64,000 nt of DNA from Methanobacteriota archaeon. Lineage in GTDB: Archaea > Thermoplasmatota > E2 > DHVEG-1. Below, one piece after another: positions 27,847 through 62,197 of the stretch. The translations under genes and the position numbers were made by a program. The notes under the pieces were generated by a model, which ran no database searches, was not told the DNA's origin, and saw nothing but the letters and a program-made list of their open reading frames with translations. Position 1 is the first letter of the stretch; every line of letters starts with the position of its first letter. The stretch lies in the NCBI GenBank assembly GCA_963769885.1, contig CAVYNH010000005.1, positions 32,001-96,000 of the forward strand, read 5' to 3'.

Positions 27847-28986
27847 CTAGGCGGTGAGCGGTGTGGGCCGTTTGTAGTCGTATTCCTTGAGGGCATAGCC
27901 CCAGTGGTTCTCGATCTTTGTGAGGTCCTGGGTGGTGAACTGGTAGTGGTCGGTGCGGACGGCCTTCTGGGTGGCGATGTAGTCCTTGAAGGCGGGCTCG
28001 GCGTCTTCGTAGCCGGAGAGGTCGAGTCTCTTGTAGAGGCTGTGGACGGTGTGGAGGGGTTGTTCGAGGAAGCTTTCGTATTTCACCTCGGCGAGGTGGT
28101 GCGGGGGGATGCGCTGTCTGTCTTGGAGGTATTTCTTGGTCGTCTCCGAGAAGAGGGCCGCCATCTGGTCCTCGACCGCGTCGTAGGGAGGCGGGGTCTG
28201 GACGCAGTAGCGGGGGATGACGGTGAGCATGAACTTGCGCATGGACATGAAGAGGTCGTAGGGGCTGCGGTAGAGGTAGATGAATTTGGCGTCCGGGAAC
28301 AGCTCGAGGAGTTGGGGGATCTTGCCGGTGTTGTCCTGGTTTTTCAGGAGGAGCTGCCGTCCTTTGGAGTACAGGGTGAGCTTCTTGAGGAGGGCGAGGT
28401 AGGTGCGTTTCCAGTCGTCGATGGTTCTGGGGGAGGCGTTGGCCATGCAGACGTAGTCGTTGTATTGTGCCATGTTGCGGGGGAAGCACCAGCCGTGGTA
28501 GTAGGAATAGGGGGAGACCGCGCCCAGGGCATATTGGTCCTCCTGGGGGAGGTCGGCGTCCATGTCCGCGTCGTCCATGGGGCGTTTCTTCGGCAGGCTG
28601 GAGACGACGAGGGGCTTGAAAAGCTTCTCGCCGCTGAGGTAGATGGTCGGCAGGTACGCCTGGAAGGTGGAGAAGTAGCCGAACTGCGGGTCGCAGGAGA
28701 GGATATTGTGCAGGTAGGTGGTCCCGCAGCGCCAGAGGCCGATGATGAAGATCGGGTCCTTGGTGATCCGGGTGTCGTCGACTTTTTTGTCGTACTTGAG
28801 CCGCTCGCGGATGTAGAACGGGGTCATGATGCCGCTGAGAGCGATGCTATAGGTGAGCCGGGGGATGTACCGAGGGCTGACGTGGAAGCGGTTCTGGGTG
28901 AGAAGGCGCAGGAGGTTCGGGAGGCTGTACCCTGGGAGTGGCGTGTTTTTGACCATGAGGCAGTCGTCACGCACGTTGAAGTCCAC
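27847..28986 (-). CDS. PAPS-dependent sulfotransferase (Sulfotransfer_3-like)
   Basis: PIFIIGLWRCGTTYLHNIL, LLLKN, FPDAKFI..YR.P, V.YE; start at GTG 28986, about 25 nt from a TATA box (ATG 28956 is an alternative). Confidence 0.88.
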   Translation of the reverse strand: MDFNVRDDCLMVKNTPLPGYSLPNLLRLLTQNRFHVSPRYIPRLTYSIALSGIMTPFYIRERLKYDKKVDDTRITKDPIFIIGLWRCGTTYLHNILSCDPQFGYFSTFQAYLPTIYLSGEKLFKPLVVSSLPKKRPMDDADMDADLPQEDQYALGAVSPYSYYHGWCFPRNMAQYNDYVCMANASPRTIDDWKRTYLALLKKLTLYSKGRQLLLKNQDNTGKIPQLLELFPDAKFIYLYRSPYDLFMSMRKFMLTVIPRYCVQTPPPYDAVEDQMAALFSETTKKYLQDRQRIPPHHLAEVKYESFLEQPLHTVHSLYKRLDLSGYEDAEPAFKDYIATQKAVRTDHYQFTTQDLTKIENHWGYALKEYDYKRPTPLTA

Positions 28987-29039
28987 GCTCTCGCATACCT
29001 CCTTATCGTATATAAAATATCTGGTACGGATATCGGCAA

Positions 29040-34768: not shown

Positions 34769-36703
34769 CTACCCGGGGAGCGTCTCCCGGGGCTTTACCG
34801 CCACGCCCACCGAAAACGCCGCCATCTCATCCGGGGAAAGCAATACGCGGCCCACTCCCAGCAGCTGATCCTCGGAATCAACGATTAGGCATTCATCACC
34901 GGGGCGCAGGCTCGGGTCACAGGAGTCGACGAACTTGGCAAACACGCTCTTGCCCTCACGGACAAACGGCATCGCATCCGCATGGACACAAACCCGCAAC
35001 AGTGGCCGTGGGAATGCCTGATGCAAACGTTCCCCCCCTGCCAGCTTCAAGGTGAACAATCCATCCTCCGCCCGCATCGAGACGACGTGCGTGTCATCAG
35101 CGAGTACGTTTCGGATCTTCTGTGTCGTCTTTGATTTTATGATCTTGAGATTGCCAGTGAAGAGGGCGGTTCCAGCCCCACGGCCGAACTGCATATCGGC
35201 GACCGCTCGTATCCGACGGTGATCGAGGTCCTCCGCCGTACCGGTGAGGCCTAGGGGGAGGTCTTCTCCGGGCTCCCATGGGACCACGGTCTGTGATTGG
35301 AGGAATTCACCAAGCCGTTTCTGGGCCTCGAGCTGGGTCTCTAGGTCAGGCGTGGCCGGGAACACGGATTGCGCACAGGGGAACATCTCGTCTAAAGCGA
35401 GGGGGACGGGGCCGAGGGTGGAGTCGACGACGACATCCGCGGCGAGGGTCGGAAGCGCGAAGACGATGGTTGGATAGGAGCTGGAGAACGGCTTGGTGCG
35501 TTCAGGGATGACGATCGTCGTCGTGTACATCGGCTCATAGCGTGTCATGAGCTGCGTGTGGTAGCGATGAAGGAGCGGGCGGTGGATCGTGGCGGGGCCG
35601 GTATAGCGGATGGCGCGGGTTTTGCTTCGCGGCTCGTGGTGTTCGAGGAATGATTGGATTGGGGGGTCTCTGAGGCGTCGGAGGGCGTCGGCGAGCGCGG
35701 GGGTGGTGGCGGCGCTGTGTTCGACGAGTTCCCAAAGCCATCCTTCGGTGATTGCGGTGCGGATGGTGCGCAGCTCCGCGTAGCTGACGTAGAGGTTGTG
35801 CAGGGCGAGGGTCTTGACGCGTTCGTCGCCGGTCATTTCCTGCAGCTCCTCGGCGGTGTATTTGGTGCAGATGGGGCAGGGGCAGGGGAGGTCGGAGAGA
35901 TCGGGGAGTCGTTCGGTGCCCCAAGGGAGGAGGTAGCGGTCGTCTTGGGCGTACTTGGCGTAGGCGGAGGAGTCGAAGAGGTCGCAGCCGAGGGCGACGG
36001 CGAGGGGGAAAAGGAGGGGGTGGCCTGCGCCGAAGAGGTGGACGGGCCGGGAGGGGTCGAGGCCTTGTTTGGCGGCGGCGATGACAGTGACGAGGTCGGG
36101 GTAGCGTTGGGTCTCCATGAGGGGGACGACGCCGCCTATGGGGTAGACGTCGGCGTGGAGTTTGGAGAGTTCTTGGGCGCAGTGGGTGCGGAGGTCTGGG
36201 TAGAGGCCGCCTTGGACGGGGCAGGCGAGCATCATGGGGCCTTTGTGTGGGAGGCTTTGTTGGGCGCGGTGGATGGTTTCGGTGATGCCTGCCTGGGCTT
36301 GTGCGTGGGTGTGGTGTGGTTCGCTGAAGATGTCGAGGATGGTGCCGATGTCGCTTTTGATGTCGCGTTGGAATTCGACGATCTGGATGGGGTCGAGGTG
36401 GACATCGCCGTAGACGTGGCTTTGGAAGGTGCCGGAGTCGGTCATGATGGTGCTGTGGAAGTGGAGGAGGCGGTGGAGGCCTTGTTTGAGGGCGGCGGTG
36501 TGGAGGTCTGGGTGTTTGTAGATGATGTAGGCGTTGGTGATGAGGATGTCGGTGTGGTAGCGTCTGGTGAGTTCGGGTGGGGGGATGAGGAGTTTGTTGG
36601 GGTTGATGACGGGCAGGAGGGTGGGGGTGGTGATGGTGCCGTGGGGTGTGGTGAGGCGGCCGAGGCGGCCGGTGGCGTCGCGTGCTTTGAGTTCGAAGGT
36701 CAT
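34769..36703 (-). CDS. tgtA: Archaeosine tRNA-guanine(15) transglycosylase with C-terminal PUA domain
   Basis: MTDSGTFQ, PVQGG, GGVVPLME, HLFGAGHP, DLFDSSAY, Zn site CPCPIC..H, PUA GKSVFAKFV; start ATG 36703. Confidence 0.95.
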   Translation of the reverse strand: MTFELKARDATGRLGRLTTPHGTITTPTLLPVINPNKLLIPPPELTRRYHTDILITNAYIIYKHPDLHTAALKQGLHRLLHFHSTIMTDSGTFQSHVYGDVHLDPIQIVEFQRDIKSDIGTILDIFSEPHHTHAQAQAGITETIHRAQQSLPHKGPMMLACPVQGGLYPDLRTHCAQELSKLHADVYPIGGVVPLMETQRYPDLVTVIAAAKQGLDPSRPVHLFGAGHPLLFPLAVALGCDLFDSSAYAKYAQDDRYLLPWGTERLPDLSDLPCPCPICTKYTAEELQEMTGDERVKTLALHNLYVSYAELRTIRTAITEGWLWELVEHSAATTPALADALRRLRDPPIQSFLEHHEPRSKTRAIRYTGPATIHRPLLHRYHTQLMTRYEPMYTTTIVIPERTKPFSSSYPTIVFALPTLAADVVVDSTLGPVPLALDEMFPCAQSVFPATPDLETQLEAQKRLGEFLQSQTVVPWEPGEDLPLGLTGTAEDLDHRRIRAVADMQFGRGAGTALFTGNLKIIKSKTTQKIRNVLADDTHVVSMRAEDGLFTLKLAGGERLHQAFPRPLLRVCVHADAMPFVREGKSVFAKFVDSCDPSLRPGDECLIVDSEDQLLGVGRVLLSPDEMAAFSVGVAVKPRETLPG

Positions 36704-36839
36704 GTGGTGCGTGGTGTATAGGCGGGGTGGTTTTTTTATTCTTCCCAGGGTTCGCGTTCGAAGACTTTGAGGAGGTCGTTGCGGGTGACGAGAAGGAGTA
36801 AGAGTTGTGTACGGACTTCGTTCTTTGTTATAAGTGGTG

Positions 36840-37607
36840 TTACAGGATCTGGATTGGATCGAGGATTTTTCGTAACACTGCGATGGCCGAGAGGGATGCC
36901 ATGTAGCTGGATTTGGGGTTGTTCGGGTTTGGCATGTTCTCGACTTCGGCGCGTAGTCTGCCGAAGTGGCCGTGGGCGAGGATGCGGTGGTCGATACGGG
37001 TGGAGACGGGATCGGCGACGATCTGGACGCGGGTGCGGTCGAAGCCGAGGCCGGCGAGGCTGAGGCAGGCAGCGACGTTGATGTTTTTTGGGTATTTTTT
37101 GACGGCGTCGCGGGCGCTGCCTTCATAGACGACGGTGCGTTTGTCGGCCTGGATGCCGAGGGACTCGGGGGGTTTGGTGGTGACGAGGGTGACGCTGTCG
37201 AGTTGGGCCATGTGAGCGGCGAAGATACCGTCGATGCCGCAGACGGCTCCAGAGGGCAGGTAGATGCGGCAGTTGTTTTGGCGGGCGGTGACTTCGAGCC
37301 GTTTGAGGAGGTCGGAGTCGAAGAGGCTGCCGATGCTCATGATGACGATGTCTTTTCTGGCGTCGAGGATGTCATAGGCGTATTGTGTTACGGCTTCTTG
37401 TGAGGCGGCTTCGAAGACGGTGTCGACGTGTGGTAGGAGCTCCTGGAGGCTGTTGACCGTGGTTGCTCTAGTGCATTTTTTTTCGAGTCGGTGCATGGCC
37501 TCGGGGACTTTGTCGAAGAGATAGAGGGCTTCGATGCCGGGCATCGTGTCGGCGGCGAGGGCGACGTCGGTGCCGATGGCGCCGCATCCGATGATTCCGA
37601 GTTTCAT
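36840..37607 (-). CDS. nadX: L-aspartate dehydrogenase
   Basis: IIGCGAIG, EAASQEAV, PSGAVCGID, P.N.NVAA.L, NP.NPKSS. Confidence 0.94.
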   Translation of the reverse strand: MKLGIIGCGAIGTDVALAADTMPGIEALYLFDKVPEAMHRLEKKCTRATTVNSLQELLPHVDTVFEAASQEAVTQYAYDILDARKDIVIMSIGSLFDSDLLKRLEVTARQNNCRIYLPSGAVCGIDGIFAAHMAQLDSVTLVTTKPPESLGIQADKRTVVYEGSARDAVKKYPKNINVAACLSLAGLGFDRTRVQIVADPVSTRIDHRILAHGHFGRLRAEVENMPNPNNPKSSYMASLSAIAVLRKILDPIQIL

Positions 37608-43560: not shown

Positions 43561-44331
43561 ATGCAAATGGAGAAATATTTAGAGTCAATGACATCACAAA
43601 AAGGAACTCGGGTCACCACCGGGATCAAAGGCCTCGACGAACTCCTCCACGGAGGACTCCCCACCGGCTCCATCACCCTCGTCTCCGGCACCCCAGGCAC
43701 CGGCAAGACGATCCTCTGCTTCCAATTCATCAACGCCGGACTCACCAACGGCGAAAAATGCCTCTTCCTCACCAGCGACGACCGCATCCCCAACCTCATC
43801 CTCCAAGCCCGCGAATTCGGCTTCGACTTCGACGCTCCCACCAAAACCGGCCAACTCCGCTTCGTCTACCTCAACCCCGAAAAACACACCCTCCACCGCG
43901 ACCTCGAAGACGAACTCCAATCCCAAAACTATACCCGCCTCGTCCTCGACTCCCTCACCCCCCTCTCCGAAATGCCGGTCTGGGTCGTCAGCCACGGCAC
44001 CGAAATCATCCCCTCCGACGACAGCACCGCCAACTCCCCCTACCCCCTCAACTCCATCCAAGCCATGCGCGTCCACCTCCGCCGCCTCATGACCATCCTC
44101 AAATCCGAACACTGCACCAGCCTCGTCACCAGCGAAGTCCCCGAAGGCTCCCGAGACCTCTCCCGCGACTCCATCTCCGAATTCATGGTCGACGGCATCT
44201 TCGTCCTCGACCTCGATCCCACCATGGACCGACGCAAACTCACCATCCGCAAAATGCGCGCCACCAAACACACCCTCAAACCCCACACCATCGAAATCAC
44301 CGACCACGGCGGCATGCAACTCCAACTTTAA
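43561..44331 (+). CDS. Single-domain KaiC/RAD55-like RecA-family ATPase
   Basis: TGI.GLDELL.GG.P, GTPGTGKT, RLVLDSL, DG, KMR.T.H; SD AGGAGG upstream. Confidence 0.9.
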   Translation: MQMEKYLESMTSQKGTRVTTGIKGLDELLHGGLPTGSITLVSGTPGTGKTILCFQFINAGLTNGEKCLFLTSDDRIPNLILQAREFGFDFDAPTKTGQLRFVYLNPEKHTLHRDLEDELQSQNYTRLVLDSLTPLSEMPVWVVSHGTEIIPSDDSTANSPYPLNSIQAMRVHLRRLMTILKSEHCTSLVTSEVPEGSRDLSRDSISEFMVDGIFVLDLDPTMDRRKLTIRKMRATKHTLKPHTIEITDHGGMQLQL

Positions 44332-44972: not shown

Positions 44973-45932
44973 ATGAAATACCAAGGCAAAGACTACAAAG
45001 CACTCTGGCGCGAAGGTGACCGCATCCACTTCATCGACCAACGCCACCTCCCCTTCACCTTCGACATCTACACCGCGCGCACCGTCGACGACATCGCCTT
45101 CGCCATCAAAGACATGATCGTCCGCGGCGCCCCCGCCATCGGTGCCACCGCCGCCTACGGCATGGCCCTCAACAGCCACGACCCAAAACGCGCCGCCCAA
45201 CTCCTCGAGTCCACCCGGCCCACCGCCCATGACCTCTTCTACGCCGTCCGCTACATGACCCACGCCCTCCAAAAAGGAGAAGACCCCTTCATCGCTGCAG
45301 ACCAATACACCGACGAGCTCCTCCGCCGCTGTAAAAAAATCGGCGAACACGGCGCCCAGCTCATCTCCGACGGCACCCGCATCCTGACTCACTGCAACGC
45401 CGGCGCCCTCGCCACCGTTGACTACGGCACCGCCCTCGCCGTCCTGCGCGAAGCCCATCACCAAGACAAAAAGATGTACGTCTACGCCGACGAGACCCGA
45501 CCGCGGCTCCAAGGACTCCTCACCGCCTGGGAACTCTTCCACGAAGGCATCCCCTTCTCCCTCATCGCGGACAACGCCGCCGGCTACTACATAGCCAAAG
45601 GCGACATCGACCTCGTCATTGTCGGAGCCGACCGTATCGCCAAGAACGGCGATATCGCGAACAAGATCGGCACCTACGAAAAAGCCGTCCTCGCCCACCA
45701 CAACGACATCCCCTTCTACGTCGCAGCCCCAGAGAACACCTTTGACCCCACCCTCCTGCACGGAGCCCAGATCGTCATCGAAGAACGCTTCGGCAACGAA
45801 CTGAAGGAAGCCCACGGGGCGCGCCTCATCCCCGACTGGGTCCCCGTGAAAAACCCGGCCTTCGACGTCACCCCCCACCAGCTCATCACCGGCTACATCA
45901 CCGAGAATGGCATCCGAAAAACCTGGCAATAA
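44973..45932 (+). CDS. mtnA: S-methyl-5-thioribose-1-phosphate isomerase
   Basis: DQR.LP, MIVRGAPAIG, TRPTA, THCNAGALAT, ETRPRLQG, GADRI, NKIGTY, NPAFDVTP. Confidence 0.93.
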   Translation: MKYQGKDYKALWREGDRIHFIDQRHLPFTFDIYTARTVDDIAFAIKDMIVRGAPAIGATAAYGMALNSHDPKRAAQLLESTRPTAHDLFYAVRYMTHALQKGEDPFIAADQYTDELLRRCKKIGEHGAQLISDGTRILTHCNAGALATVDYGTALAVLREAHHQDKKMYVYADETRPRLQGLLTAWELFHEGIPFSLIADNAAGYYIAKGDIDLVIVGADRIAKNGDIANKIGTYEKAVLAHHNDIPFYVAAPENTFDPTLLHGAQIVIEERFGNELKEAHGARLIPDWVPVKNPAFDVTPHQLITGYITENGIRKTWQ

Positions 45933-46290: not shown

Positions 46291-49101
46291 CTATGAGGCT
46301 CCATCCAAACTGCCCTCGTTACAGGGCTGGTACGGGTTGAACGCAGGGTCGCCATACAAGGCGAACTCATGTAAGGCGACGTACTTCTTGTCCAACACCC
46401 TCGTCCGCTCATTCTGCAGCTGCGGGGCGATGGACGACGCCAGCATAGCATTCAGCGCCGGACAATCCGTGAACAGCGACAGCGGCGGCGTCCACAAGAA
46501 GGTCGCGTTCGCATCCGCGGGGAGGTACGCGTTCTTGGAGTCGCGCAGCGCCCGGCCGATGTCCGCATCGTTGTCAATCAGGTTCTGGATGGTCTTCTCC
46601 GCTATGACCGCACCGAAATGCAGGTCGGGGAACCGATGCCGCAGCTTATACTGCAGGATCGCCTTCAACAGCCCGAGGATGCCGAAGCCGAGCCCGTTGG
46701 CGAACAGCCGAGGCTCCAGGTACCCGGGGTCCGCGGTGACCCGCGTCGACCCGATGTAGGCGTTCACGCCCACATGGAGGTACTCCTGGGACAGGACACT
46801 CTCCGCGAGCATCCCATCCGTCCGCGCCGTGATGCAGCTCTCCACGAAGATGACGGCCGGACCGTACTTCATCCCGCTCACCGCCCGCAGGTCATAGGCG
46901 CCCTTATCGGATAGGCTGCTGCGGGCCTTGGGGTAGATCCGGGCCCAGGTGGTTACCCCTGGGAACCCCCGGGAGTCGATGAAGACGTCGCCGAACTCAT
47001 ACATGTTGAAGAACCCATGGGAGAACGCGAAGATCAGGCTGCTGTTTTCCTGCATCGAGCCGCCCTTAACCTTCTCTGTTGCACTCAAGAGGTTGATGAG
47101 TTTCTTTGGGAAGAGGAGTTTGCTGAGAAGCCCTGTGTTCTTGATGCGGTCCAGCCCGGTGAGGGTGAAGCCTTCGCGCTGGGACTGCAGCCAGAACGTA
47201 TGTTTGGCGTCGTACCCGCCCGTGGCCATGAGTTCGGTAAGCTTGGTGTTAATGAACCAGCTCTCACCGGTGGGGAACTTCGTCGGCTCCCCTCGGCCAC
47301 TGTAGAGGATGGATTCAAGCTTGGTCGCGATTGGTAGGTTTTGGAACTCCAGGCCGCAGCCGGTCTGCACCAGCGAGGTGTTCTTCCACTCGCTCATGTT
47401 CGCGATGATGTTCTCATAAAAGAAAGTCCGGTCGAGCAGGGCGCTGACGTCCTGGGCATCAATCCCGGTAACCCGACCGACGGCGTTCTCCTGGACCGGC
47501 CAATAGGTCAGGGTGTCATTCTCTGGGTCAGTGGGCCGGGGGTCGATGTCCCCGAAGTAGAAGTCGCTGGGGACGTAGTAACCCATGATTGCCCCGTTGT
47601 GCGTGTCTGCCATCCCGTCGGGGTTGTGGTAGAAGTACATCGGGACCATGGTGGGGTCTGCGACAATCGCGATGTAGGCGGGGTCCTGGTAGTAATGCTC
47701 TCGGAGGGATTTCGTGTCGTTGGTGTCGATGTGGGCGAGGCTTGCGAGGAGTGTGTTGAGCTGGTCGTGGATCGCCTTAGTATGTTCGTTGGAGGCGGGC
47801 CCGAGGTAGAAGTTACTGCCGGGCTGGGTGACGCCGGGGCAGGGGCTGCCGTTGTAGAGAACGTTGTCATCTGCGGCGAAGGCGAATGAGGTGTTGGCGA
47901 AGACAATCCCCTGGTGGTACGCGGCGAGGTAGGCTGCTGTGCTGGAGATGTTGGACATGAGGGGGACGAGGGGGGAGTCGATGCTGTCGACGGTGATACG
48001 GAGGTTGTATTTGCCGGAGGTCTGGGCGAACCAGCTGCCGTAGACCTTGACGTGGTACGTGCCTGGCTTATTGTACATGACGGTCTCGAAGTGGACGCGG
48101 TCTTCGACAATCAAGCCCTCAGGGTCCCGGATGGGGGTGCCGCCGGCCGAGGATCCGTAGAAGTAGGTCTGGTTGGCGGAGTCGGTGAGCATGAACATGA
48201 TGCGGTCGCCGAGGAGCTGGACGTTCTGGGAGTCGAGGTTGCGCAAGTCGAAGCTGAGGACGGCGTACTTATATCCCTCAGGGATGGTGAAGTCGTGGGT
48301 GGCGAGGGCACCATGCCGCAGCACGGCCCACGCCTGGCTGGGGAGGACGACGGAGGAGGTCGCGGTGCCGTTGAACTCGTAGCGGGTGCTGTTGAGGATG
48401 GCTGGCTGGTGGGCGTCGAGAGGGTTGGTGATGACGATGTAGTTGGAGGGTGAGCCGAACTTGGTCTTGATGACGGCCTGGGTCTCGGATAGGATCTGGG
48501 CGGGGGAGGTGAAGTAGATGGCGTTGTAGGTCTCGGTGCAGGCGATGTTGCCGCAGACGTAGAGGTTGTGGATGCCGAGGTAGTCGAGGACGTCGACGAC
48601 GTCGCTGTCGAACTGCGCGGCGACGATGACGGGGATGCTGAGATACGAGGCGAGGGGGGTGATGCAGACGCCAAGGTCGTAGCCGGTCTGGTCTTCGCTG
48701 AGCAGGACCGCGGTGTCACTATGTTTCCAGAGGAGGACGGCGGCGGCGAGGGAGGCGCGTTCGGGGCTGGCGCCACCCACGATGTAGTCGGCGTAGATGC
48801 CGGTCATGGATTCGGCGCGCTGGACCGCGGTGGAGGGGCTATTGAAGTTTTTGATGTAGAGCGGGATAATTTCCTGGTTTTTCCCATTGTAGTGGATGGC
48901 GAGGGGGGTGGCGATGAGGGCGTAGAAGGGGCTGGCGTCAGAGGCGGCGATGGCGGTGGGGAAGTCGGGGATGAACGCCGCGGAGGCGTTGAAATACGGC
49001 TGTGGGGTGGAGGGGGCGCTGGTCGCGGGGGTCAGGGGGACCGCCGTGGTCAGGAGCAGGACGACGGCTGCAATTGAGAGGAGAGAAGTGTTCTTATGCA
49101 T
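46291..49101 (-). CDS. Secreted peptidase C25 (gingipain/PorU-like) family protein with N-terminal CWB2-like region
   Basis: Signal peptide; I.AD...VP, PSD...D.D, E.AVGR, catalytic SHG and ESC, G...YIG, F.LYGDP; W..S..AVL...D....PLASYL.IP resembles cell-wall-binding repeat 2. Confidence 0.8.
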   Translation of the reverse strand: MHKNTSLLSIAAVVLLLTTAVPLTPATSAPSTPQPYFNASAAFIPDFPTAIAASDASPFYALIATPLAIHYNGKNQEIIPLYIKNFNSPSTAVQRAESMTGIYADYIVGGASPERASLAAAVLLWKHSDTAVLLSEDQTGYDLGVCITPLASYLSIPVIVAAQFDSDVVDVLDYLGIHNLYVCGNIACTETYNAIYFTSPAQILSETQAVIKTKFGSPSNYIVITNPLDAHQPAILNSTRYEFNGTATSSVVLPSQAWAVLRHGALATHDFTIPEGYKYAVLSFDLRNLDSQNVQLLGDRIMFMLTDSANQTYFYGSSAGGTPIRDPEGLIVEDRVHFETVMYNKPGTYHVKVYGSWFAQTSGKYNLRITVDSIDSPLVPLMSNISSTAAYLAAYHQGIVFANTSFAFAADDNVLYNGSPCPGVTQPGSNFYLGPASNEHTKAIHDQLNTLLASLAHIDTNDTKSLREHYYQDPAYIAIVADPTMVPMYFYHNPDGMADTHNGAIMGYYVPSDFYFGDIDPRPTDPENDTLTYWPVQENAVGRVTGIDAQDVSALLDRTFFYENIIANMSEWKNTSLVQTGCGLEFQNLPIATKLESILYSGRGEPTKFPTGESWFINTKLTELMATGGYDAKHTFWLQSQREGFTLTGLDRIKNTGLLSKLLFPKKLINLLSATEKVKGGSMQENSSLIFAFSHGFFNMYEFGDVFIDSRGFPGVTTWARIYPKARSSLSDKGAYDLRAVSGMKYGPAVIFVESCITARTDGMLAESVLSQEYLHVGVNAYIGSTRVTADPGYLEPRLFANGLGFGILGLLKAILQYKLRHRFPDLHFGAVIAEKTIQNLIDNDADIGRALRDSKNAYLPADANATFLWTPPLSLFTDCPALNAMLASSIAPQLQNERTRVLDKKYVALHEFALYGDPAFNPYQPCNEGSLDGAS

Positions 49102-49131
49102 AGAAATCAAGAGTAATTTATCCGAGAAGGT

Positions 49132-49141
49132 TATTTAAAAG
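49132..49141 (-). promoter_or_regulatory. TATA box of the C25 peptidase gene
   Basis: Minus-strand CTTTTAAATA about 30 nt upstream of the ATG. Confidence 0.55.
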
Positions 49142-49241
49142 TATTGAATATATAAAAGATTGATATAAATAGGTACAGCAAAGAGTCCTGGGATGGGAGA
49201 AAAAAAGAAGAAGGGGGAGGGGGGGTGCCCCTCTCGTAGTC

Positions 49242-50858
49242 TTAGGTGATCTTGACGAAGATCAGGTGTACTTTGCCGGTCGCGGTCTTCGAGGCGGCTT
49301 TGGCCGTGCACTGGACGTTGATGCTGCCCCAGCCGAAGATGAACTTGTCGGTCTTTACTGTGACAGACGCGCTCTTGTTGAGGCTGGGGATGGTCCCGTT
49401 GCTGCTGACGTTGATCTTGTGCAAGATGCCGCCAGTCACGGTGATGCTCCAGTCGAATGGGGTGGTCTGGTCGCCGGTCCCGGTATTCGTGATCTGCATG
49501 GTGACCTTGCCGATGGCGCCGGCGATGGTGCCGATCTCGATGACGGGGACCGCGGGCGTGTAGGCCGTGTTGTAGTAGATGTCAGTGTTGGTGGGGACGC
49601 GGGCGTCGTTCCAGACGGAGTAGATGTAGGTGCCGGAGCCGAAGAGGTCGTGGGCGTTGTTGTCGATGGGGCCGACGGTGTCGTCGGTGTTGATGAGCTG
49701 TTCAGTGCCCCAGTTGGCGCCGTTGTCGAGGCTGACTTTCCCGTAGATCTGGGTGCCCTTGATGTAGGTGCAGACCGCGGCGTTGCCGAGGATGGTGATC
49801 TGTGGGTAGAGCTCATCGTCGCCGGAGTTGGCGACGGTGACGGGGGCGAAGCTGGAGAATCCGTTCGTGGACCGGTAGCAGACGACGTCCTGGTTCCCTG
49901 CCTTGTCTGCGTTCACGACGAGCAGGACGGTGTTGTTGTTCGCGGCGACGTCAGGGTATTTCAAGTTGCCGGTGTCCGTGATCTGCTTGTTGAAGACGTA
50001 TGTGTGCCGACTGTTGACGTCCCAGACGCCGAAGTTGTCCTTACGGAGCAGCAGCTGGTAGTTGCCGCCACTGGGGTTGCGGTCCCAGACGGCGTAGGAC
50101 ATGTTCGTCACCTGGTCGATGTCGTTGGCCGCGTGTACACAGTTCGTTATGCCGGTCAGCCAGGAGATCGTCGCGGCTCCCGCCGAGCTGGTCTCATAGG
50201 TCATCAGGCAGGAGCCGGCGAGGTTGGCACCGCCATAGTTGTTGTAGCCGGAGAGGGCAATCTGGCCGAAGTTCCAGAGGCCGGGGTCTCCCCCTGGGCC
50301 TGTATGGGAGTAGGCCGCCAGGTGGAGGTTCTGGAACTCGCTGAAGTTGTTGTCTGACCATTCCCAGTAGACGCCCTGGGGGTTGGTCGGGTCGGTCGCG
50401 TCGGCGAGGAACACTTGCCCAGAGGTTGTGGGGTCCTGGTTCGGGGTCATGGTGCCCCAGAAGCTTCCCGTCTTGTAGTCGGTGCGGGGGAGGGTGAAGC
50501 CGAAGGTGTCAGGCCAGTAGACCGGCGTGGTCCAGTCGTTGGAGCTGGCGAAGACACAGAAGTAATCACTCGCGTCTGGGACGTAGGTCTGATAGCCGGC
50601 GAAGAAGACGCCTGCGGTGGAGTCCCCAGCCATGCCGGGGTGGGTGTCGTTGTAGTCGCCGCCGCTGATCGCCTCGCCGCCTTTGCCCAGGCACGCCGTG
50701 GAGATGTGCACAGATGGCAAGGAACGGCTTGTGGTCGTGCAGTATCTGGCTTCGATGTTGGAGTCAGAGGTCGTTTGTGCGGTCAAGCTTACACAGCTTG
50801 TAATCATCAGCCCAACAAACACTACAAGTGTTGTCCATTTCACGAGGTTGCGTTTCAT
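49242..50858 (-). CDS. Secreted beta-propeller (BNR/Asp-box-like) protein with conserved C-terminal domain
   Basis: Signal peptide, S.DNG..W and S.NG..SF Asp-box-like motifs, VW.D.R...DIYY; CTD homologous to that of 26190..27668. Confidence 0.75.
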   Translation of the reverse strand: MKRNLVKWTTLVVFVGLMITSCVSLTAQTTSDSNIEARYCTTTSRSLPSVHISTACLGKGGEAISGGDYNDTHPGMAGDSTAGVFFAGYQTYVPDASDYFCVFASSNDWTTPVYWPDTFGFTLPRTDYKTGSFWGTMTPNQDPTTSGQVFLADATDPTNPQGVYWEWSDNNFSEFQNLHLAAYSHTGPGGDPGLWNFGQIALSGYNNYGGANLAGSCLMTYETSSAGAATISWLTGITNCVHAANDIDQVTNMSYAVWDRNPSGGNYQLLLRKDNFGVWDVNSRHTYVFNKQITDTGNLKYPDVAANNNTVLLVVNADKAGNQDVVCYRSTNGFSSFAPVTVANSGDDELYPQITILGNAAVCTYIKGTQIYGKVSLDNGANWGTEQLINTDDTVGPIDNNAHDLFGSGTYIYSVWNDARVPTNTDIYYNTAYTPAVPVIEIGTIAGAIGKVTMQITNTGTGDQTTPFDWSITVTGGILHKINVSSNGTIPSLNKSASVTVKTDKFIFGWGSINVQCTAKAASKTATGKVHLIFVKIT

Positions 50859-50936: not shown

Positions 50937-50946
50937 TATTTAAAAG
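50937..50946 (-). promoter_or_regulatory. TATA box of gene 49242..50858
   Basis: tatttaaaagtat.gaa on the plus strand, nearly identical to 49132-49148. Confidence 0.5.
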
Positions 50947-51149
50947 TATCGAAAATAAAATTCATGTCCGCAGATTTTTATACCAAAAACCTACCTAGGT
51001 GGACCACACAGTCTCGTAGAGATTGCTAAAAAGGCTCAGGCACACTTCAGGAAGGAACAACAATTAAATAGGGGCTTCAGTAATATATATTCCGAAAGGA
51101 ACATTGACGTTTGCGTCAACAAGGGGGAAGTGAACGAGAGGTGAAACTC

Positions 51150-53813
51150 ATGAAAACCGCATGGTTAGGAACCATCCTGTTAGCTACCTTGCTCTGCCTG
51201 CCGCCCATCAGCGCGGCGCCCATCACCCGAACGCCAACCGAGGCCACGCCCACCGCACCCAGCACCCCATATCAAGCGACAGCCCCGCTGACGGCCAGCA
51301 TCCACATCGCCAGGCCCGTCGCCGGCTACGCCTACTTCTTTAACCTCAAACCCGTCCACCTCCCACGTCTCACCCAGGGCGCCCTCGTCGTCGGCCGCCA
51401 ACTTGTCATTGATACCGTCACCGACGGCATCGACCACACCAAGTTCGTCGCCACCCGCAAGGTCACCGGCTGGACCACCACCGCCTGGGACTACTCCGAC
51501 CTCGACGGCACCGGCACCAGCCTCGCCGTCACCACCGGCATCTACACCGTCACGGCCATCGGCTACGACGCGGACGACCACGAGATCGCCAGCGACGCCG
51601 TCAAGGTCTTCTACCTCAAGCTCGGCAACAGCGACTTCGGCGTCTGGGCCCACACCAAATACGACAACGGTATGACCATCACCACCCCCCTCAACATCGG
51701 CATCACCGACTTCGGCTCCATGCTCACCACTGGCACCGAGCACACCTACGCCGTCTCCCTGCAAAAACACGCGGACTCCACCCTCCGCCTCCGCTTCTCC
51801 CGCACCACCATCATGAACGACACCCACAACGTCGTCCAAGTCAGCTGCGGCCTGTCCACCACCGCAGACACCACCAAGGCCTACGAGATCTCCCTCGAAG
51901 TCCGCTTCCCCTTCGACACCCTCTCCGGCAACACCAGCCGCACCAAGAACGTCTCCGTCTTCAGCGCCTCCATCGGCTACCGCTCCACCTCCGGCACCAC
52001 CCCAGGCCTCAACAACGTCAACACCACCTTCTACTTCGGCCGCGAGAACCTCTCCGACCCCCGCATCTTCCGCCTCTGCCTCCAGCCTGAGAACGTCGAC
52101 GAACGCTCCAGCGTCACCTACTTCAGCCGCTACCAGACCGTCGACACCGCCGGCCAGGAGCGGTTCTTCCGCGAGTTCTCCGTCGCCTTCACCCCCGCCA
52201 CCGACCTTACCATCACCACGATCCCCCGCGAGGCCAAGGTTTCCTACGACTTCGGCCGCAGCGCCGGCATGCCCACCAGCATCGCCTTCCGCGCCGAAGG
52301 CGGCCTCCTCGACGACATCGTCCAGACCTTCCACGTTGACCCGCTCCCGCAGTACATGAACTTCGACCTCACCATCCTGGGCAGCCGGGAGTTCATCTAC
52401 CAAAGCGACCGCGCCTACAATATCTCCTACGCCCTGGACTCCGACCAGAACGGCAACCTTGTCACCCTCCAGGCCCAAAGCCTGCCCACCAACATCCACG
52501 CCACCTGGGGCGTCGACTTCGGCCTCCTCAGCGGCCACTCCTTCCAAAGCTTCCTCGACATCAACATGAGCGCTGAGATCGCCGGCCTCATCATCACCCA
52601 AGCGAACCTTACCACCCCCCTCGTCAACATCACCCACTTCCCCCGCCACTTCCGCGTCGACAGCCAAATCGACCTCCAAGCCGGCACCGGCAACATCACC
52701 CTCCATCGAAACCAGCCGGAACCCCGCACCGTCGCCCTCACCCTAGCCTATGACCACTTCACCATCTCTAAGTCCTTCATCCTCGCCAACGAATACCTCA
52801 CCCTCGCCTGGCAGCTCGACGTCGACAACGGCACCGGCCACGTCACCATCACCCGCGACAACAACGCAACCCTCCAATACCACACCGAGCTCAACTATCA
52901 GGGCTGGACCTTCGCCCACGACATGACCCTCACCAACCCACACGTCTCCTTCGCCTGGACCGTCGACCGCCTCACCCGCAAGGGCCACCTCGTCTTCACC
53001 CGCGACCCCACGGGCGACGCCCCAACGTTCTCCTCCCGGATCTCCTACATAGGCTGGGCGCTGCAGAACACCCTGCAGCTCAACAACCCCAGCACCGACC
53101 TCTATTGGGACCTCGCTGACGCCTCCGACCACCATGCTGTCATCAACCTCACCACCGGCGGAGGCCTGCTCCTCACCGACACCCTCAGCCTCATCGACAA
53201 CGGCAACACCATCCTTAACGTCAGCATCGGCCTGCAGACCGACAACCACTTCCAGGTCTCCTGGGACAACATCAACGGCACCATCAAGAACTTCCAATGG
53301 TCCGGCCACCTCATCAAGCTGACCAACCTCGCCCTGGCCGTCGACCTCCCCGGCGACCTCCTCACCATTCAGGGCGCCTGGCAGATGGGCAGCGGTGGCA
53401 CCGTCGACCTCACCATCAACAAACCCGTCACCGTCACCTTCGCCGACGTCCAGACCCCCCGATTCCAAATCCTCGGCTACGTGTCCTTCGCCGCCACCCG
53501 GCACCTCACCCTCCGCTGGAGCTTCGGCAGCCTCGGCTACCTGCGCGTCTACACCAACGGCCAGCCCCTCGGCGATGCCGCCGGCTTCAAGATCTTCTAC
53601 AACCCCAGCAACAGCGGCAACTACCAATACGGCTTCAACGCTACCACCACCAGCTTCCTGAATGCGAACTTCAACATCACCTGGAACACCAACCTCCCGC
53701 TCCCACGGGTCTGGTGCGCCGGGACCCTACCCCTCAACTGGCTGCTTAATTGGAACGCGGCCGTCATGCTCAACTCCGTCTGGTACCAATGCGACGGCTG
53801 GATCTACACTTAA
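51150..53813 (+). CDS. Large secreted all-beta protein with N-terminal Ig-like module and 49-aa internal repeats
   Basis: SD GAGGTG, signal peptide from ATG 51150, amphipathic beta-strand pattern throughout, no TM anchor. Confidence 0.85.
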   Translation: MKTAWLGTILLATLLCLPPISAAPITRTPTEATPTAPSTPYQATAPLTASIHIARPVAGYAYFFNLKPVHLPRLTQGALVVGRQLVIDTVTDGIDHTKFVATRKVTGWTTTAWDYSDLDGTGTSLAVTTGIYTVTAIGYDADDHEIASDAVKVFYLKLGNSDFGVWAHTKYDNGMTITTPLNIGITDFGSMLTTGTEHTYAVSLQKHADSTLRLRFSRTTIMNDTHNVVQVSCGLSTTADTTKAYEISLEVRFPFDTLSGNTSRTKNVSVFSASIGYRSTSGTTPGLNNVNTTFYFGRENLSDPRIFRLCLQPENVDERSSVTYFSRYQTVDTAGQERFFREFSVAFTPATDLTITTIPREAKVSYDFGRSAGMPTSIAFRAEGGLLDDIVQTFHVDPLPQYMNFDLTILGSREFIYQSDRAYNISYALDSDQNGNLVTLQAQSLPTNIHATWGVDFGLLSGHSFQSFLDINMSAEIAGLIITQANLTTPLVNITHFPRHFRVDSQIDLQAGTGNITLHRNQPEPRTVALTLAYDHFTISKSFILANEYLTLAWQLDVDNGTGHVTITRDNNATLQYHTELNYQGWTFAHDMTLTNPHVSFAWTVDRLTRKGHLVFTRDPTGDAPTFSSRISYIGWALQNTLQLNNPSTDLYWDLADASDHHAVINLTTGGGLLLTDTLSLIDNGNTILNVSIGLQTDNHFQVSWDNINGTIKNFQWSGHLIKLTNLALAVDLPGDLLTIQGAWQMGSGGTVDLTINKPVTVTFADVQTPRFQILGYVSFAATRHLTLRWSFGSLGYLRVYTNGQPLGDAAGFKIFYNPSNSGNYQYGFNATTTSFLNANFNITWNTNLPLPRVWCAGTLPLNWLLNWNAAVMLNSVWYQCDGWIYT

Positions 53814-53869: not shown

Positions 53870-56843
53870 ATGCGACGACAAATCCTCTCCGGGACCATCC
53901 TCGTCCTCATGCTGACCGGCGGCCTTACCGGCACCCTGGCCGCCCAAGCACACGAACCGGGGATTCTCCACCTACACCTTCCAGGACGAATTCCTCGACA
54001 CCAGCCTTATCGACCCCACCCTCACCACCGGCGTCCAGATCCAAAGCGGCGTCGTCTCCATGCTGTACACCATCCCCGCCTGGGCGACCTACCCCGCCTG
54101 GCAGCGCCTCCGCCCCGTCTACCTCACCAACAACGGCTCCGCCGCCACCAACGCGATCGTCCGCATCGTCGTACCCTACGACGGCACCATGCAGTCCGAC
54201 TTCGACGACCTCCGGTTCACCACCAGCACCGGCGTCCCCCTCCTCTACAACCGCATCATTAAAACCGACGGCGACTCCGCCACCGTCCTCATCAAGATCC
54301 CCAGCCTCCCCCACGGCATGACCCAGATCTACATGTTTTACGCGAACCCCACCGCCACGGACGGCAGCTCCATGCTGCTCACCTGGACCAAGGTCACAGT
54401 CGACGACGTCCGCATCTCCTATGTGGGAGCGACAGAAGGCTGCTGGGGCCCTGCCGTCGCCCACGGCGTCAACCAGTTCCTTGTCACCTGGGCCGAAGGG
54501 CTCCCCCCAGAGACTTCGAGCGACGAGAGCCACCGGCTCATCCACCGCGAAATCCACGGGCGGCTCTACAACGGCCAGGGCGGCAACCCGATCCCCGTCC
54601 CCGGCGTCGGCGGCGACATCGTCATCAGCCCGACCACGGCGGTGCACGCCGAGAACCCTAGCGTCGCCTATAGCCCGCTGACCTCCCGGTATCTTGTCGC
54701 CTGGGAGGAGAACCCCACCCTCGCCCGCTATGCCATCGGCATCCATGCCACCGTTGTGCGGGCCTCCGACCACTTTGTGTACACCCCTGTGACCGTGGAC
54801 GACCCCATTTTTAGCGGCGGGTCGTACTGGCCCTGCCGCAACCCCTGCGTGGCCTTCGACAACCTCAGCGACCGGTTCCTCATCGTCTGGAGCAAATGCG
54901 ACGCGAGCTCCAACATCGACGTCTACGGCCGGCTTCTGGACTCCTACGGCGGCTGGATCGGCGGCGCCTTCGCCATCGCCAGCGGCGTCGGCTACCAGGG
55001 ACAGCCGTTCGTCGCCTCGGACAACGACGGCCATTTCCAAGTCTCCTTCGAGAACGGGACGAGCGGGACCAACGGGCCGCTCAGTGTGCGGTCAATCCTG
55101 TTGAACTCGAACGGCGCGCCAGTCAGCGCCTTCTACACCCTTGAGACGGGTAGTACCTATACAGACTGCATCTATCCCTCCTCAGCGTACAACCCCGCCA
55201 AGCAGCAGTACCTCACGGCCTGGAACACCGGGGACATCAGTGGATTGAACTACGCGGGCCGTATTGACGCCTTCCGGCTCTCCTATTACGGCATCCCGCA
55301 GGCGAGCATGCTGACGGTGAAGTCTAGCACAATCGCCAAGAGGACCAGTGTCGTCCCCTACTTCACCCCCGACTACCTCGTCTCGTATGATTATTTGGCG
55401 AAGGTCTACGGCCGGGTCGTCACCGACGACGGTATCCCCATCGAGACGGAGCTGCAGTTGTGTGACTCGCTCGCTGCGGGGGCGGACAACGCCGTCCTCG
55501 CCGTCAACGGCAGTAACGTCTTCGCGATCTGGGAGGATGAGCGGAACCATTACTACACGGAGGTCTACGGGAGTGTCTGGCATGTGGACCAGACCATGGT
55601 CACGACGCAGATGAGCTTCGGTGCGGAAGCCCCACTACTGTTGGACGCGACGTTGACCTCAGTTCCAATCACGCCGGAGAACTTCGTCCATTGGAAGCAT
55701 TTCGGCGACCGTAGCACGTTAAATAACTGCACGATCAACTTCCGGCTTCTCAACCAGAGCGGCACTCTCGTGCTGAAGTCCTGGATGAACAACGGCGAGG
55801 ACATCAGTCTGATCACCCAGCCTATCGTCCGAGTGCAGGCGCTTTTCCATCGGACCCAGCCGGTCACCAGCCCGGCGGTCGACTACTGGAACGTCACGGC
55901 CCTAGTAGGCGGCGACCTGGAGGCTCCGCACACGTGGGCGAACGTGTCTCCCGCGGTGCCGAACGGGGAGAACGGTTGGTACACGACGCCGATCCAGGTG
56001 ACATTGCAGAGCTTTGACAACGATTCACCGCCGCAGAACGTCAGCACCTACTACCGGCTCAACGGCGGTGCGGTGCAGAATTACACGGGTCCGTTTAACG
56101 TCTCTGAGGAGCAGGCGAACAACAGTGTCGAGTACTGGTCGCGGGACCTGGCGGGCAACGAGGAGCTTCCCCATAAGCTACTCTCAGGTTTGAACATCGA
56201 CGGCACCATGCCTTTTGTGACCATCACCTCTCCCAGCATGGTTATCTTCCTCGGCGAGGCGCAGATTGCGGGTGTGTCGGTGGAGGAGACGTCCGGGTCC
56301 GGGATTGACTTGGTGAGCGTCCTCATTAACGACGAGGAGGTCTATAGCCAGTCGTTTAATCAGACCCGCTGGGCGAATGTCTCGTGGAACTTCACGGCGC
56401 TCACGGGGGATTCCTATGATATCAAGATTCGGGCGTTCGACCATGCCGGGAATATCGGCACAGACCGCCGGTTGGTGAGCGCCTCAGAGTACGGCCTGTA
56501 TCTCCCTGGGTACCTCTACCTGTTCGACTCCCCCAAGATCGGGCCCCTATATCAGCTACAGAAACTAATGATGGCCGTGGTGATCAACTACGACATTTTG
56601 CATGTGGTCCTCCATTCCTTCCCAGCGGACGCGGTGTCCGCGGAGTTCACGGCGACGCGGCAGCTGCTGGCGGGGAACTACTCGTTCTATGATATGAACC
56701 TCAGCGACGGGGCGTCCTATGACATGCCGCTGCCGGTGGGGGTGTACCAGATCAGCGTGACCCTCTACGACGTCCAAGGGAGTCCAGTAAACCAGGAAGT
56801 CCTGATCTATAAGGTATTCGTGCTGCTGCTGAAGACCGCGTAG
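53870..56843 (+). CDS. Large secreted DUF2341 / beta-propeller / Ig-domain protein; frameshift after the signal peptide
   Basis: SD AGGAG, ATG 53870 and signal peptide in one frame, body in the +1 frame; MQSDFDDLRF..KIP.L..IYMFY.NP (DUF2341); seven P.VA..FLV.W blades; PNG.NGWY..YWS.D.AGN.E Ig module. Confidence 0.8.
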
Positions 56844-59775: not shown

Positions 59776-62112
59776 TCAACCCCCGATGTAGTGATGTATG
59801 AGTAGTGAGAGGGATTCGGAGTAGAGGTCGTCGCGGATGCTGTTGTTTGGGGTGACGCGGCAGACCCAGGTTTGGCCAAGGCTGAGTGATTCGGAGACGA
59901 GGACACTGCGGTCTGAGGAGCCGGTGCAGGAGCAAAGGTAGTCTTGGTAGCATTGTTCTGATGGGAGGATGGTTGGGTAGATCTTGACGTCGTCGATGGT
60001 GCCGGTGAAGTTGTTCTCTCCTCCGAGGGGGATGCCGGTGACTTCCAGGTCGTCAATGGCAAAGAAGCTGGTGAGGGCGCTCGTGCGCCATTTGAACTGC
60101 AGCGTCAGGCTGGTCAGGGCCCGGGGCAGAGTAATGGTGACTTTGGCCCAGGGGCTCTGTCCGCTGTAGGTGGGATTTGTGATTTCGTAGAGGGGAATCC
60201 ACTGGCTGTTGTTGCGGTAGTAGAGGCCGAAGAAGTCGGCGGCGGCGGTGTTCTTGCGGCTGTACCAGAATGAAATCTGGAAGTCTTTGTAGCCGGTGAG
60301 TGGGATGGCGGTGCGGTTGTAGATGGCGTATTCGGGGTCGAAGTCACCGGTGCCGCCCAGCGAGTAGCTGCCGGTGTGGGGGACGAGGATGGAGGTTGGG
60401 AGGAGGTCGAAGTCGCATTCGAGGCGGCCGTAGCTGGTGGCGTTGAGGTAGAGTTGGTCGATGTAGACTTGGCTGTTGTCACCGTCAGCGTTGCACATGA
60501 AGCGGATGAACATGTTGGTGGGGAAGCGGTAGGTGGATTCGTTGACGTAGACAATCTTGTGGTACCAGGTGCTGGTTGCGTAGCCGCTGGGGTAGGTGAT
60601 GGTGAGGATGTTGGTCCAAGCGGTGCCGTTGTAGTATTGGAGCCACCAGGTTTTGCCGGTGGACCAGGTGTTGCCGCGCCACATCCACCAGAAGTCGATT
60701 TTGAGGGATTTGTAGCCTGGTGTGTCCATGTCGATGGGGGTGGTGAGTCGGAAGGAAGAGGCGACGCCGCTGTCGTCGCGGATGCCGGCAGAGGCGGTGC
60801 CTTCGTGTTTGTAGGTGGCGGAGCGGTAGGCGTCGGCGGAGGAGCCGTTGCTGCCGGGGATGTAGTTGCCCCAGCCGGTGTTGAAGTTATCGTACCGGAG
60901 AGTGGACCAGGTAGGGGTCTGGCTGCCGCTGGTGTTCTGTTCTTTCCAGGTGTCGCGTTCGGCGGTGGTTTCGAAGCCGGTCGTGAAGAGGGGACGGCGG
61001 GTGGAGGGGCCGGTGCCGGTGCCGATCTTGCCGGCGGGTCGATCGCCGGAGCCGAGGGGGCGGCCGGCGGTATGGGCTTGGGTGGTGGCGTCCTGGAGGC
61101 CATCGAGGTAGATGGCGGCGATGCCGGTGGTGGCGTCGTAGGTGGCGGTGGCGTGGTGCCAGAGGTTGTCGGTGACGATGCGGGTGCCGAGGAGGTCATT
61201 GGTGTCGTCAGAGGCGGTGGTGCTCCATTTGAGGCGGCTGTCGCTGACTGCGAGTTCGAAGTAGTCGCTGCGGTTGTAGGAGAGGATGGTGCCAGAGGCT
61301 TGGGTGGTTTTGAACCAGACTTGGATGGTGACCTGGGTGAGGGTGGCGGTACTGAAGGGGTAGGGGAGGGTGATGGCGTCGTGGCCGCTGTATTGGTAGG
61401 CACCGCCGAGGCGGCCGTTTTGGGTCCAGGTGGGGCCGGTGATGGTGCCGTTATGGTTCAAGGTGGAGTAGTCTTTGGTCGTGTCAGTGGTCTGGGTATC
61501 AAAGGGGAGGAGCAAGCAGGCGCGTGGGATGTAGGCACCGCCGTTGTATCGCATCCAGTTGTAGATGTAGGAGGTGGGGAGGGGGAAGATGGAGGGGTGG
61601 ATGGTGTAGCTGTAGCAGATGAGGTCTTCGTCGGGGGTGTCGGTGAGGAGGGTAGAGATGGACATAGGATCGAGGATGTGGGGGACTGGGCCGGGGGGTG
61701 TGGGTTTGGGTTTGAGGGTGCCTTGGAAAATGATCTCGGTGGTGCCGTCGGTGTTGCGGTTGACGACGGTGACGTTGATTAATTCGTCAGGGGCGAGGTG
61801 GTAGTCGGTGAGGGGGATGGTATCACCCATTTGCCAGGGATCGGTGTGATGGTAGGCGACGCTGTCTTGGCCTTGGGTGACGAGGATGTCGTAGTCGGTG
61901 ATGGTGGTACCGCCGACGTGTTGGAGGATGGGGGTGGCAGTCTCGTTGACGTAGCCGGCGATCTTGATGTTGGATTGATGGGAGGGCATGGGGAGGGGGA
62001 AGACTCTGAGGTAGATGACGGCGAAGGCGGCGAGGGCGATGACAACGAGGAGGAGTACGGCGATGACTTCTGATACGGCATAGGGTCTTCGGTAAGAAGG
62101 TTTGTTGTGCAT
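59776..62112 (-). CDS. Giant archaeal type IV (minor) pilin with LamG and MAM-like domains
   Basis: Class III-like signal RRPYA|VSEVIAVLLLVVIA, L.H.GG pilin motif; LamG WHH.TATYD..YLDG..F.G.IDDV.IY. Confidence 0.85.
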   Translation of the reverse strand: MHNKPSYRRPYAVSEVIAVLLLVVIALAAFAVIYLRVFPLPMPSHQSNIKIAGYVNETATPILQHVGGTTITDYDILVTQGQDSVAYHHTDPWQMGDTIPLTDYHLAPDELINVTVVNRNTDGTTEIIFQGTLKPKPTPPGPVPHILDPMSISTLLTDTPDEDLICYSYTIHPSIFPLPTSYIYNWMRYNGGAYIPRACLLLPFDTQTTDTTKDYSTLNHNGTITGPTWTQNGRLGGAYQYSGHDAITLPYPFSTATLTQVTIQVWFKTTQASGTILSYNRSDYFELAVSDSRLKWSTTASDDTNDLLGTRIVTDNLWHHATATYDATTGIAAIYLDGLQDATTQAHTAGRPLGSGDRPAGKIGTGTGPSTRRPLFTTGFETTAERDTWKEQNTSGSQTPTWSTLRYDNFNTGWGNYIPGSNGSSADAYRSATYKHEGTASAGIRDDSGVASSFRLTTPIDMDTPGYKSLKIDFWWMWRGNTWSTGKTWWLQYYNGTAWTNILTITYPSGYATSTWYHKIVYVNESTYRFPTNMFIRFMCNADGDNSQVYIDQLYLNATSYGRLECDFDLLPTSILVPHTGSYSLGGTGDFDPEYAIYNRTAIPLTGYKDFQISFWYSRKNTAAADFFGLYYRNNSQWIPLYEITNPTYSGQSPWAKVTITLPRALTSLTLQFKWRTSALTSFFAIDDLEVTGIPLGGENNFTGTIDDVKIYPTILPSEQCYQDYLCSCTGSSDRSVLVSESLSLGQTWVCRVTPNNSIRDDLYSESLSLLIHHYIGG

Positions 62113-62197
62113 CTGCCTACCCTGAAGTTCTTTCTGTTGCGCTTTGTTTATATGGGCTTCGTGGCATTTTCTCAGGGGTGTCATTTTATTGGGTTTT

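Follow-up and report, generated by a model that had tools for sequence, protein, structure and literature searches.

A CARDB-like terminal domain as a candidate non-covalent membrane anchor of secreted proteins in a Thermoplasmatota archaeon

The window analysed here, a stretch of 64,000 nucleotides (positions 32001-96000 of contig C5) from the 2.09 Mb genome G000, contained two genes for secreted proteins which end in a homologous domain of about 100 amino acids, and this domain is the subject of the present analysis. One of the two genes lies beside a gene for a family C25 peptidase, whose relatives were found in metagenome-assembled genomes (MAGs) titled Thermoplasmata or Thermoplasmatota. 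The host appears to be an archaeon of the Thermoprofundales (MBG-D/DHVEG-1) type, to judge by its many C25 genes, since a large expansion of this family has been reported for that order (PMC9585477). Thermoprofundales is a widespread sediment lineage with extracellular gingipains and clostripains, and abundant extracellular peptidases are encoded in its genomes (PMC9585477).

The first carrier, of 492 amino acids, consists of a signal peptide, a PQQ-type beta-propeller and the domain, and the second, of 538 amino acids, has a signal peptide and no Pfam match. The two domain copies are 22.8 kb apart and shared 29% identity (E 3e-8), which bore out the claim of an earlier note on this DNA that two secreted proteins with different bodies have a homologous end. 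LIFVKI, which the note had offered as the motif of the family, was not sustained, and the consensus end of 184 aligned copies was instead F-V-L-(L/G)-(F/P/I)-F-V. The 538-aa protein family was present in all genomes of the sister families f3 (25/25) and f9 (13/13), in which it is a frequent carrier of the domain (f1, f2, f3, f5, f7, f8, f9 and f10 denote groups within the host's class). The next gene downstream of the 538-aa carrier encodes a C25 peptidase with a signal peptide, here termed C25-W, which matched PF01364 with 44.9 bits (cut-off 23, E 1.3e-11). Its catalytic dyad was intact, as described previously, and the residues H698-G699 and S758-C759 were invariant in 32 close homologs. The coordinates of these features are collected in Table 1.

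Table 1. Features of the two carrier genes and of C25-W in the window (pLDDT, predicted local distance difference test; Ig, immunoglobulin; rmsd, root mean square deviation)
Feature	Position	Strand	Remarks
492-aa secreted PQQ-type beta-propeller protein	26190-27668	-	PF13570 E 3.6e-70, also PF13360
Candidate anchor domain, copy A	26190-26486	-	abuts last propeller strand, linker of ~3 residues
Secreted protein of 538 aa, beta-propeller of BNR/Asp-box type probable (lead only)	49242-50858	-	sialidase/BNR clusters at 0.76-0.78, under 0.9
Candidate anchor domain, copy B	49242-49544	-	~100-aa CARDB-like Ig sandwich, four Gly-hydrophobic turns, flanking lysines, pLDDT 97.6
TATA-type promoter element of 538-aa gene	50937-50949	-	13-mer identical to that of C25-W
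TATA-type promoter element of C25-W	49132-49144	-	13-mer identical to that of 538-aa gene
C25-W, conserved low-copy C25 peptidase, without the candidate anchor domain	46291-49110	-	ATG start at 49101, 936 aa
C25-W, N-terminal CWB2-like (cell-wall-binding 2) alpha/beta region, residues ~45-218	48457-48978	-	boundaries approximate (whole-protein model, aligned 51-543)
C25-W, inserted jelly roll, residues 237-376	47983-48402	-	middling match to the jelly roll of Tk-SP (Z 7.8, rmsd 2.7, 101 residues aligned)
C25-W, Pfam C25 match, residues 477-925	46336-47682	-	His698 codon 47019-47017, Cys759 codon 46836-46834

The promoter regions of the two neighbouring genes had been described as near-identical, and an exact 13-mer was indeed found in both. 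The 13-mer is a canonical archaeal TATA-type element, with three exact copies and 19 at one mismatch in the genome, in which its core TTTAAATA occurs 185 times. As a sign of co-regulation of the 538-aa gene and C25-W it was set aside as weak. The presence of an element before each gene suggests that they have separate promoters. A scan for bacterial promoters and terminators found nothing.

The structure of the domain was predicted as an eight-strand, CARDB-like Ig sandwich, with strands assigned by DSSP to model positions 7-16, 18-25, 35-43, 49-57, 65-69, 76-86, 89-99 and 101-104. The 184 aligned copies showed four hydrophobic runs between near-invariant glycines (positions 14-17, 43-49, 72-78 and 96-102), and the Gly-hydrophobic turns noticed earlier in the window copies were conserved across the family. 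At 13 turn positions, a mean of 11.6 residues were hydrophobic, with at least 10 in 164 of the 184 copies, and they were arranged in runs rather than alternating. The conservation was one of residue class, F, L, I and V being interchangeable, rather than of identity, and the mean column identity of paralogs was 27%. Lysine or arginine was enriched beside the turns at positions 51, 69 and 79. Compared to the protein body (-5.5), the domain had a net charge of +3.0 per 100 amino acids, and it was the more positive part in 41 of 42 proteins. Because each strand reverses direction in the DSSP assignment, the four turns (A-B turn, C-C' loop, E-F loop and final hairpin) are placed by the model at one tip, opposite the N-terminal linker.

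In structural comparison, the archaeal CARDB structures 3idu and 2l0d were matched with Z 8.9 (rmsd 2.4-2.6, 88-89 residues aligned), tied with other Ig domains, and FlaF was matched with Z 7.2. Foldseek returned just generic Ig or beta-sandwich matches, with no C-terminal domain (CTD) of the type IX secretion system (T9SS) and no C2/PLAT structure among the matches listed. No model for the domain was present in Pfam and NCBIfam, and no description of it was found in the literature searched. The structural matches to CARDB, together with atlas neighbours named CARDB and weak matches to PF07705 (E 0.1 reached by 12 of 53 copies, best 1e-6), would fit an ordinary CARDB spacer without targeting role. 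However, the window copy scored 15.8 bits, over profile positions 22-83 of 101, against a gathering threshold of 22.7. The weak matches of the domain in other Thermoplasmatota were ordinary CARDBs, which have polar loops, an acidic D/N/E motif, and an internal position or a following transmembrane (TM) helix. The acidic motif, which lies in a loop of the C-terminal half and was seen in several ordinary CARDBs of other lineages, was absent from the 184-sequence profile. Moreover, 131 of 134 full-length matches in the global search described below were terminal, and no other tether followed the domain in the genome. With its sub-threshold Pfam score, hydrophobic turns and missing acidic motif, the domain is CARDB-like in fold yet not an ordinary CARDB, the identity that the earlier note had named as fatal to its proposal, and a mere spacer is extremely improbable.

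The extent of the family was determined with a hidden Markov model (HMM), iterated within the genome to convergence. The domain was detected in 56 open reading frames (ORFs), at the C-terminus in 53. Signal peptides were called by a simple hydropathy heuristic on the 59 ORFs with a domain match at E<0.1, and 48 passed; at least four of the failures were downstream pieces of split genes, with the signal in the upstream piece. Several carrier genes are split over ORFs in this genome, which may be due to assembly indels. The carriers were unrelated to one another and included eight gingipain-type C25 peptidases with propeptide, peptidases of families C1, M14, M28 and S8, PQQ and FG-GAP propellers, NosD, a glucose/sorbosone dehydrogenase (GSDH) and an arylsulfotransferase, and 11 carriers had a PKD domain. 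In a global search, 1.84 billion representatives were covered and 2,456 proteins matched at E<=1e-10, a number that also includes long repeat proteins in which the match was restricted to the CARDB-like first half. Of the best 150 matches, 134 were of full length, and 131 of these were terminal. Tandem copies were present in the proteins P0015 and P0049, and a few copies of the domain were internal. These numbers strongly supported the view of a portable surface tag on secreted proteins. The HMM scan suggested along with it gave the expected abundance of mostly terminal matches with signal peptides, but N-terminal and internal copies exist, and an exclusively terminal position did not hold.

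By family, the domain was found in 67/67 genomes of f1, 3/4 of f2, 25/25 of f3, 13/13 of f9 and 1/1 of f10, and was not found in f5 (0/32), f7 (0/4) or f8 (0/2). Beyond the host's class, a match was obtained in just one of about 230 genomes. Among the relatives, occurrence of the domain is limited to five families, which belong to the order of the host and to one or two sister orders.

Secreted proteins of the genome ended in several classes of tail. Besides the 53 terminal copies of the domain, an amphipathic helix (terminal in 22 of 22), a Big_7-like Ig domain (terminal in 26 of 43) and eight PGF-CTERM tails were counted. Genome-wide, no ORF joined the domain, the helix tail or the Big tail with one another, and no carrier ended in PGF-CTERM. 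Within single protein families the tails were swapped. The gingipain-type C25 cluster had eight domain, one helix, one Big and one TM tail and 11 members with none, and the propeller cluster had five domain, eight helix, 10 Big and two TM tails. In most homologs of the 538-aa protein the end was the domain, but one had a Big tail and four had a helix-type end, of which one was called by HMM and three were judged by eye. The domain is also independent of its position in the chain, in that 16 of 18 GSDH homologs had the order signal peptide, domain, enzyme, and the remaining two ended in a PKD-like domain and an amphipathic-helix-like tail.

The helix tail is about 30 amino acids long with an F-P-x-A-F-P core, and was found always terminal on 22 secreted proteins (for example, contig C1:39648-42173 and C6:528735-530303). 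Its net charge was +4.1, higher than that of the body in 20 of 21 proteins, and one carrier tested gave no NCBIfam match for it. In the window, the PKD protein at 23805-24911 ends in a looser amphipathic helix, possibly of this type, which was not picked up by the helix HMM. The Big_7-like Ig tail occurred in 43 ORFs and often ends in (V/W)-(K/R)-F-(F/L), as at C5:16139-18958 and C6:133877-135700.

Our analysis makes it fairly probable that the domain, as a CARDB-derived Ig sandwich specific to the lineage, acts as an uncleaved, non-covalent (monotopic) membrane anchor. The portability of the domain, its fold, its hydrophobic and basic conservation, its independence of position and the swapping of tails are observed, and lipid binding is proposed by analogy to discoidin C2 and PLAT domains. 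In this mechanism, the carrier would be exported and its signal peptide removed, and the four Gly-hydrophobic turns of the folded domain would sit in the cytoplasmic membrane, at the level of its outer leaflet, while the conserved lysines near the turns would contact anionic head groups. The cargo enzyme would then face outward and be held at the cell surface, and the domain would be one of four interchangeable tethers, the others being the helix tail, the Big_7-like Ig tail and the PGF-CTERM/TM tails. With slightly better than even odds, the hydrophobic-tipped Ig, the helix tail and the Big_7-like tail constitute an undescribed set of enzyme-free tethers that holds secreted enzymes on the cell.

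Several points weigh against a membrane anchor. Apart from a signal peptide and the domain, three proteins (C6:425024-425500, C6:552485-552979 and C6:753241-753744) contain almost nothing, and they carry no cargo to anchor. The exposure of the turns is deduced from DSSP and sequence rather than from coordinates, the helix tail with which the domain exchanges is itself a presumed anchor, and no description of the cell envelope of the lineage was found in the literature searched. Binding to a protein partner, or oligomer formation, would be equally conceivable for a hydrophobic tip. An uncleaved docking module of this sort, whose tip binds an envelope protein (the S-layer or an unknown receptor) or self-assembles, would account for the large conserved hydrophobic patch, the three stand-alone proteins and the tandem copies. 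Ig folds such as FlaF bind S-layers, which also favours docking, the structural match of the domain to FlaF being just Z 7.2. Conservation at the level of residue class, with the low identity of paralogs, suits lipid better than one protein partner, and the domain swaps with a simple amphipathic helix; such docking or self-assembly was judged unlikely.

The tip might also serve released enzymes, which would adsorb to detrital lipid or organic particles instead of the cell that made them. Hydrolases (C25, C1, M14, M28 and S8) are frequent among the carriers, which would fit such a substrate-surface module, and the abundance of extracellular peptidases in Thermoprofundales (PMC9585477) is in line with it. 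On the other hand, redox and sulfur-transfer carriers occur as well, as indicated by GSDH and by structural neighbours that include clusters of nitroreductases and rhodaneses. In paralogs, moreover, the domain takes the place of TM-type tails, by which proteins stay attached to the cell that makes them. Adsorption to detritus is thus quite unlikely.

The earlier note had proposed that the domain is processed by the adjacent C25 peptidase in the manner of PorU, which cuts the CTD of its substrates and then attaches an anchor to the new C-terminus (PMC5445135). The domain would then be a T9SS-like signal, cleaved and transpeptidated to a surface molecule by C25-W or a propeptide-type paralog. 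It is Ig-like, mostly terminal and linked to signal peptides, and C25-W, with its invariant dyad and a CWB2-like surface domain, is near-universal and low-copy in the families that have the domain (f1 64/67, f3 24/25, f9 13/13) and was not found in f5 (0/32). The CWB2-like region matched Cwp8 (5j6q, Z 11.3), Cwp6 (Z 11.0) and SlpA (Z 10.1), its Pfam CWB2 match being E 0.15 only. However, N-terminal copies of the domain are conserved in 16 genomes, to which PorU chemistry on a new C-terminus cannot apply. Many linkers are 2-6 residues long and have no common motif, an argument weakened because PorU specificity is loose. The PorU model NF033707 was not matched by C25-W, and none of the eight carrier C25s scored above 80 bits, the cut-off being 420. 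The T9SS CTD models of NCBIfam and Pfam gave no match for the domain or its carriers. In structure, C25-W was nearer to RgpB (Z 30.7, rmsd 2.8, 320 aligned) and Kgp (Z 29.3) than to latent PorU (Z 15.1). Nothing meaningful was retrieved when the profile of C25-W was run against PDB sequences.

The distribution of C25-W did not favour a dedicated role either. Its agreement with the domain holds within the class, as the note had anticipated, yet all C25s share this class-level profile, and the co-occurrence therefore amounts to one clade-level event. Dyad-intact C25-W homologs of the same architecture were found in 11 examined genomes of other families, and direct searches of ten genomes with such homologs for the domain gave no match or weak ones (best E 1e-6), those inspected being ordinary CARDBs. 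A carrier adjoins C25-W within the host's genus only; elsewhere the upstream gene is a phospholipase-B/propeller gene or a second C25-W. In the genome, with 34 C25 matches, 6 of 33 C25 genes abut a carrier. Genome G001 (97% complete, 28 domain matches) was without C25-W; it was considered as a counter-example and not relied on, because a few losses are expected from MAG incompleteness. A predicted complex of C25-W (residues 45-934) and the domain scored 0.00 and was not used as evidence either way. These results suggested that C25-W is a separate conserved protease, probably envelope-bound, which is not dedicated to the domain. Cleavage by a C25 enzyme is accordingly very unlikely, and of the two branches left by the earlier note, non-covalent docking was the best reading.

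Archaeosortase A (TIGR04125) is encoded in the genome (127 bits, cut-off 75). In the region C6:430872-434285, its gene lies directly downstream of a domain carrier and beside genes reading like phosphatidylserine decarboxylase and synthase. ArtA was considered as processing enzyme for this reason (carrier directly upstream of artA, C6:433185-434285), and was rejected in view of the psd-/pssA-like neighbours, its own eight substrates and its differing profile, which does not track the domain (f3 5/25, f5 18/32). None of the eight PGF-CTERM proteins is a carrier, in agreement with the previous statement that the domain is not an archaeosortase signal.

Other genes of the region were also recorded. 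Upstream of C25-W, ten related loci (among L055, L056 and L061-L071) had a secreted protein of about 930 amino acids with phospholipase B and PQQ-propeller parts; downstream, an IF-2B-family gene (11 loci; 44973-45932 in the window) or a gyrase A-like gene (10 loci) was found. A second C25-W paralog (C6:198364-201334) and a more distant one (C6:385513-387748) are each split over two ORFs. The window further encodes a secreted, beta-rich protein of 900 amino acids, which has repetitive strands containing Trp and matched neither Pfam nor NCBIfam (51111-53813, +), a protein of 927 amino acids in which DUF2341 and Ig domains of the OmpL47 type were recognised (54060-56843, +), and a fusion of a laminin G domain to the N-terminus of an archaeal type IV pilin (59776-62184, -). 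Ordinary genes were those of an SMC-like protein (20074-23691, by sequence), a sulfotransferase (27847-29043), a tRNA-guanine transglycosylase (34769-37126) and a KaiC-like ATPase (43561-44331).

If the membrane anchor is real, it would be an anchoring route without TM helix, lipidation or sortase, and would be a further way for archaea to fix proteins at their surface, besides TM helices, lipoboxes and archaeosortases. Whether enzymes are cell-bound or diffusing decides who gains from protein breakdown in sediment, and if about 50 proteins per genome carry a tether that can be exchanged for two other unnamed tails, a coat of enzymes bound to the cell is to be expected. The domain is also usable as a marker for surface proteins of the clade.

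Known systems resemble parts of this arrangement. Archaeosortase A with PGF-CTERM tethers secreted proteins to the archaeal membrane in the same genome, whereas the domain lacks the PGF motif, TM helix and basic tail. The gingipains RgpB and Kgp share the catalytic fold and the His-Gly/Ser-Cys dyad with C25-W, which differs by its N-terminal CWB2-like region and inserted jelly roll and has no Pfam C25 propeptide match and no C-terminal Ig or anchor domain. The T9SS CTD of Bacteroidota is likewise portable, Ig-like and terminal on proteins with a signal peptide, gingipain-type C25 proteases among them, and is paired with PorU; the domain described here is also found N-terminally, is longer (about 100 amino acids) and has a predicted hydrophobic tip, and the C25s scanned in the genome (that of the window and the eight carriers) included no PorU ortholog. 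CARDB is an Ig sandwich of the same size with the N-x-G motif after strand B, and is found on archaeal surface proteins as well. In contrast to it, the domain has four Gly-hydrophobic turns and a final hydrophobic hairpin in place of polar acidic loops, and is basic and nearly always single and terminal. The discoidin C2 domain of factor V/VIII, PLAT and cytolysin domain 4 are soluble beta domains with hydrophobic tip loops and basic residues. The likeness to these monotopic beta-sandwich lipid anchors, with hydrophobic loops that the model places at one tip and with basic residues, is a functional analogy; they gave no sequence or top structural match, and here a CARDB-type Ig is used on about 50 proteins of one genome.

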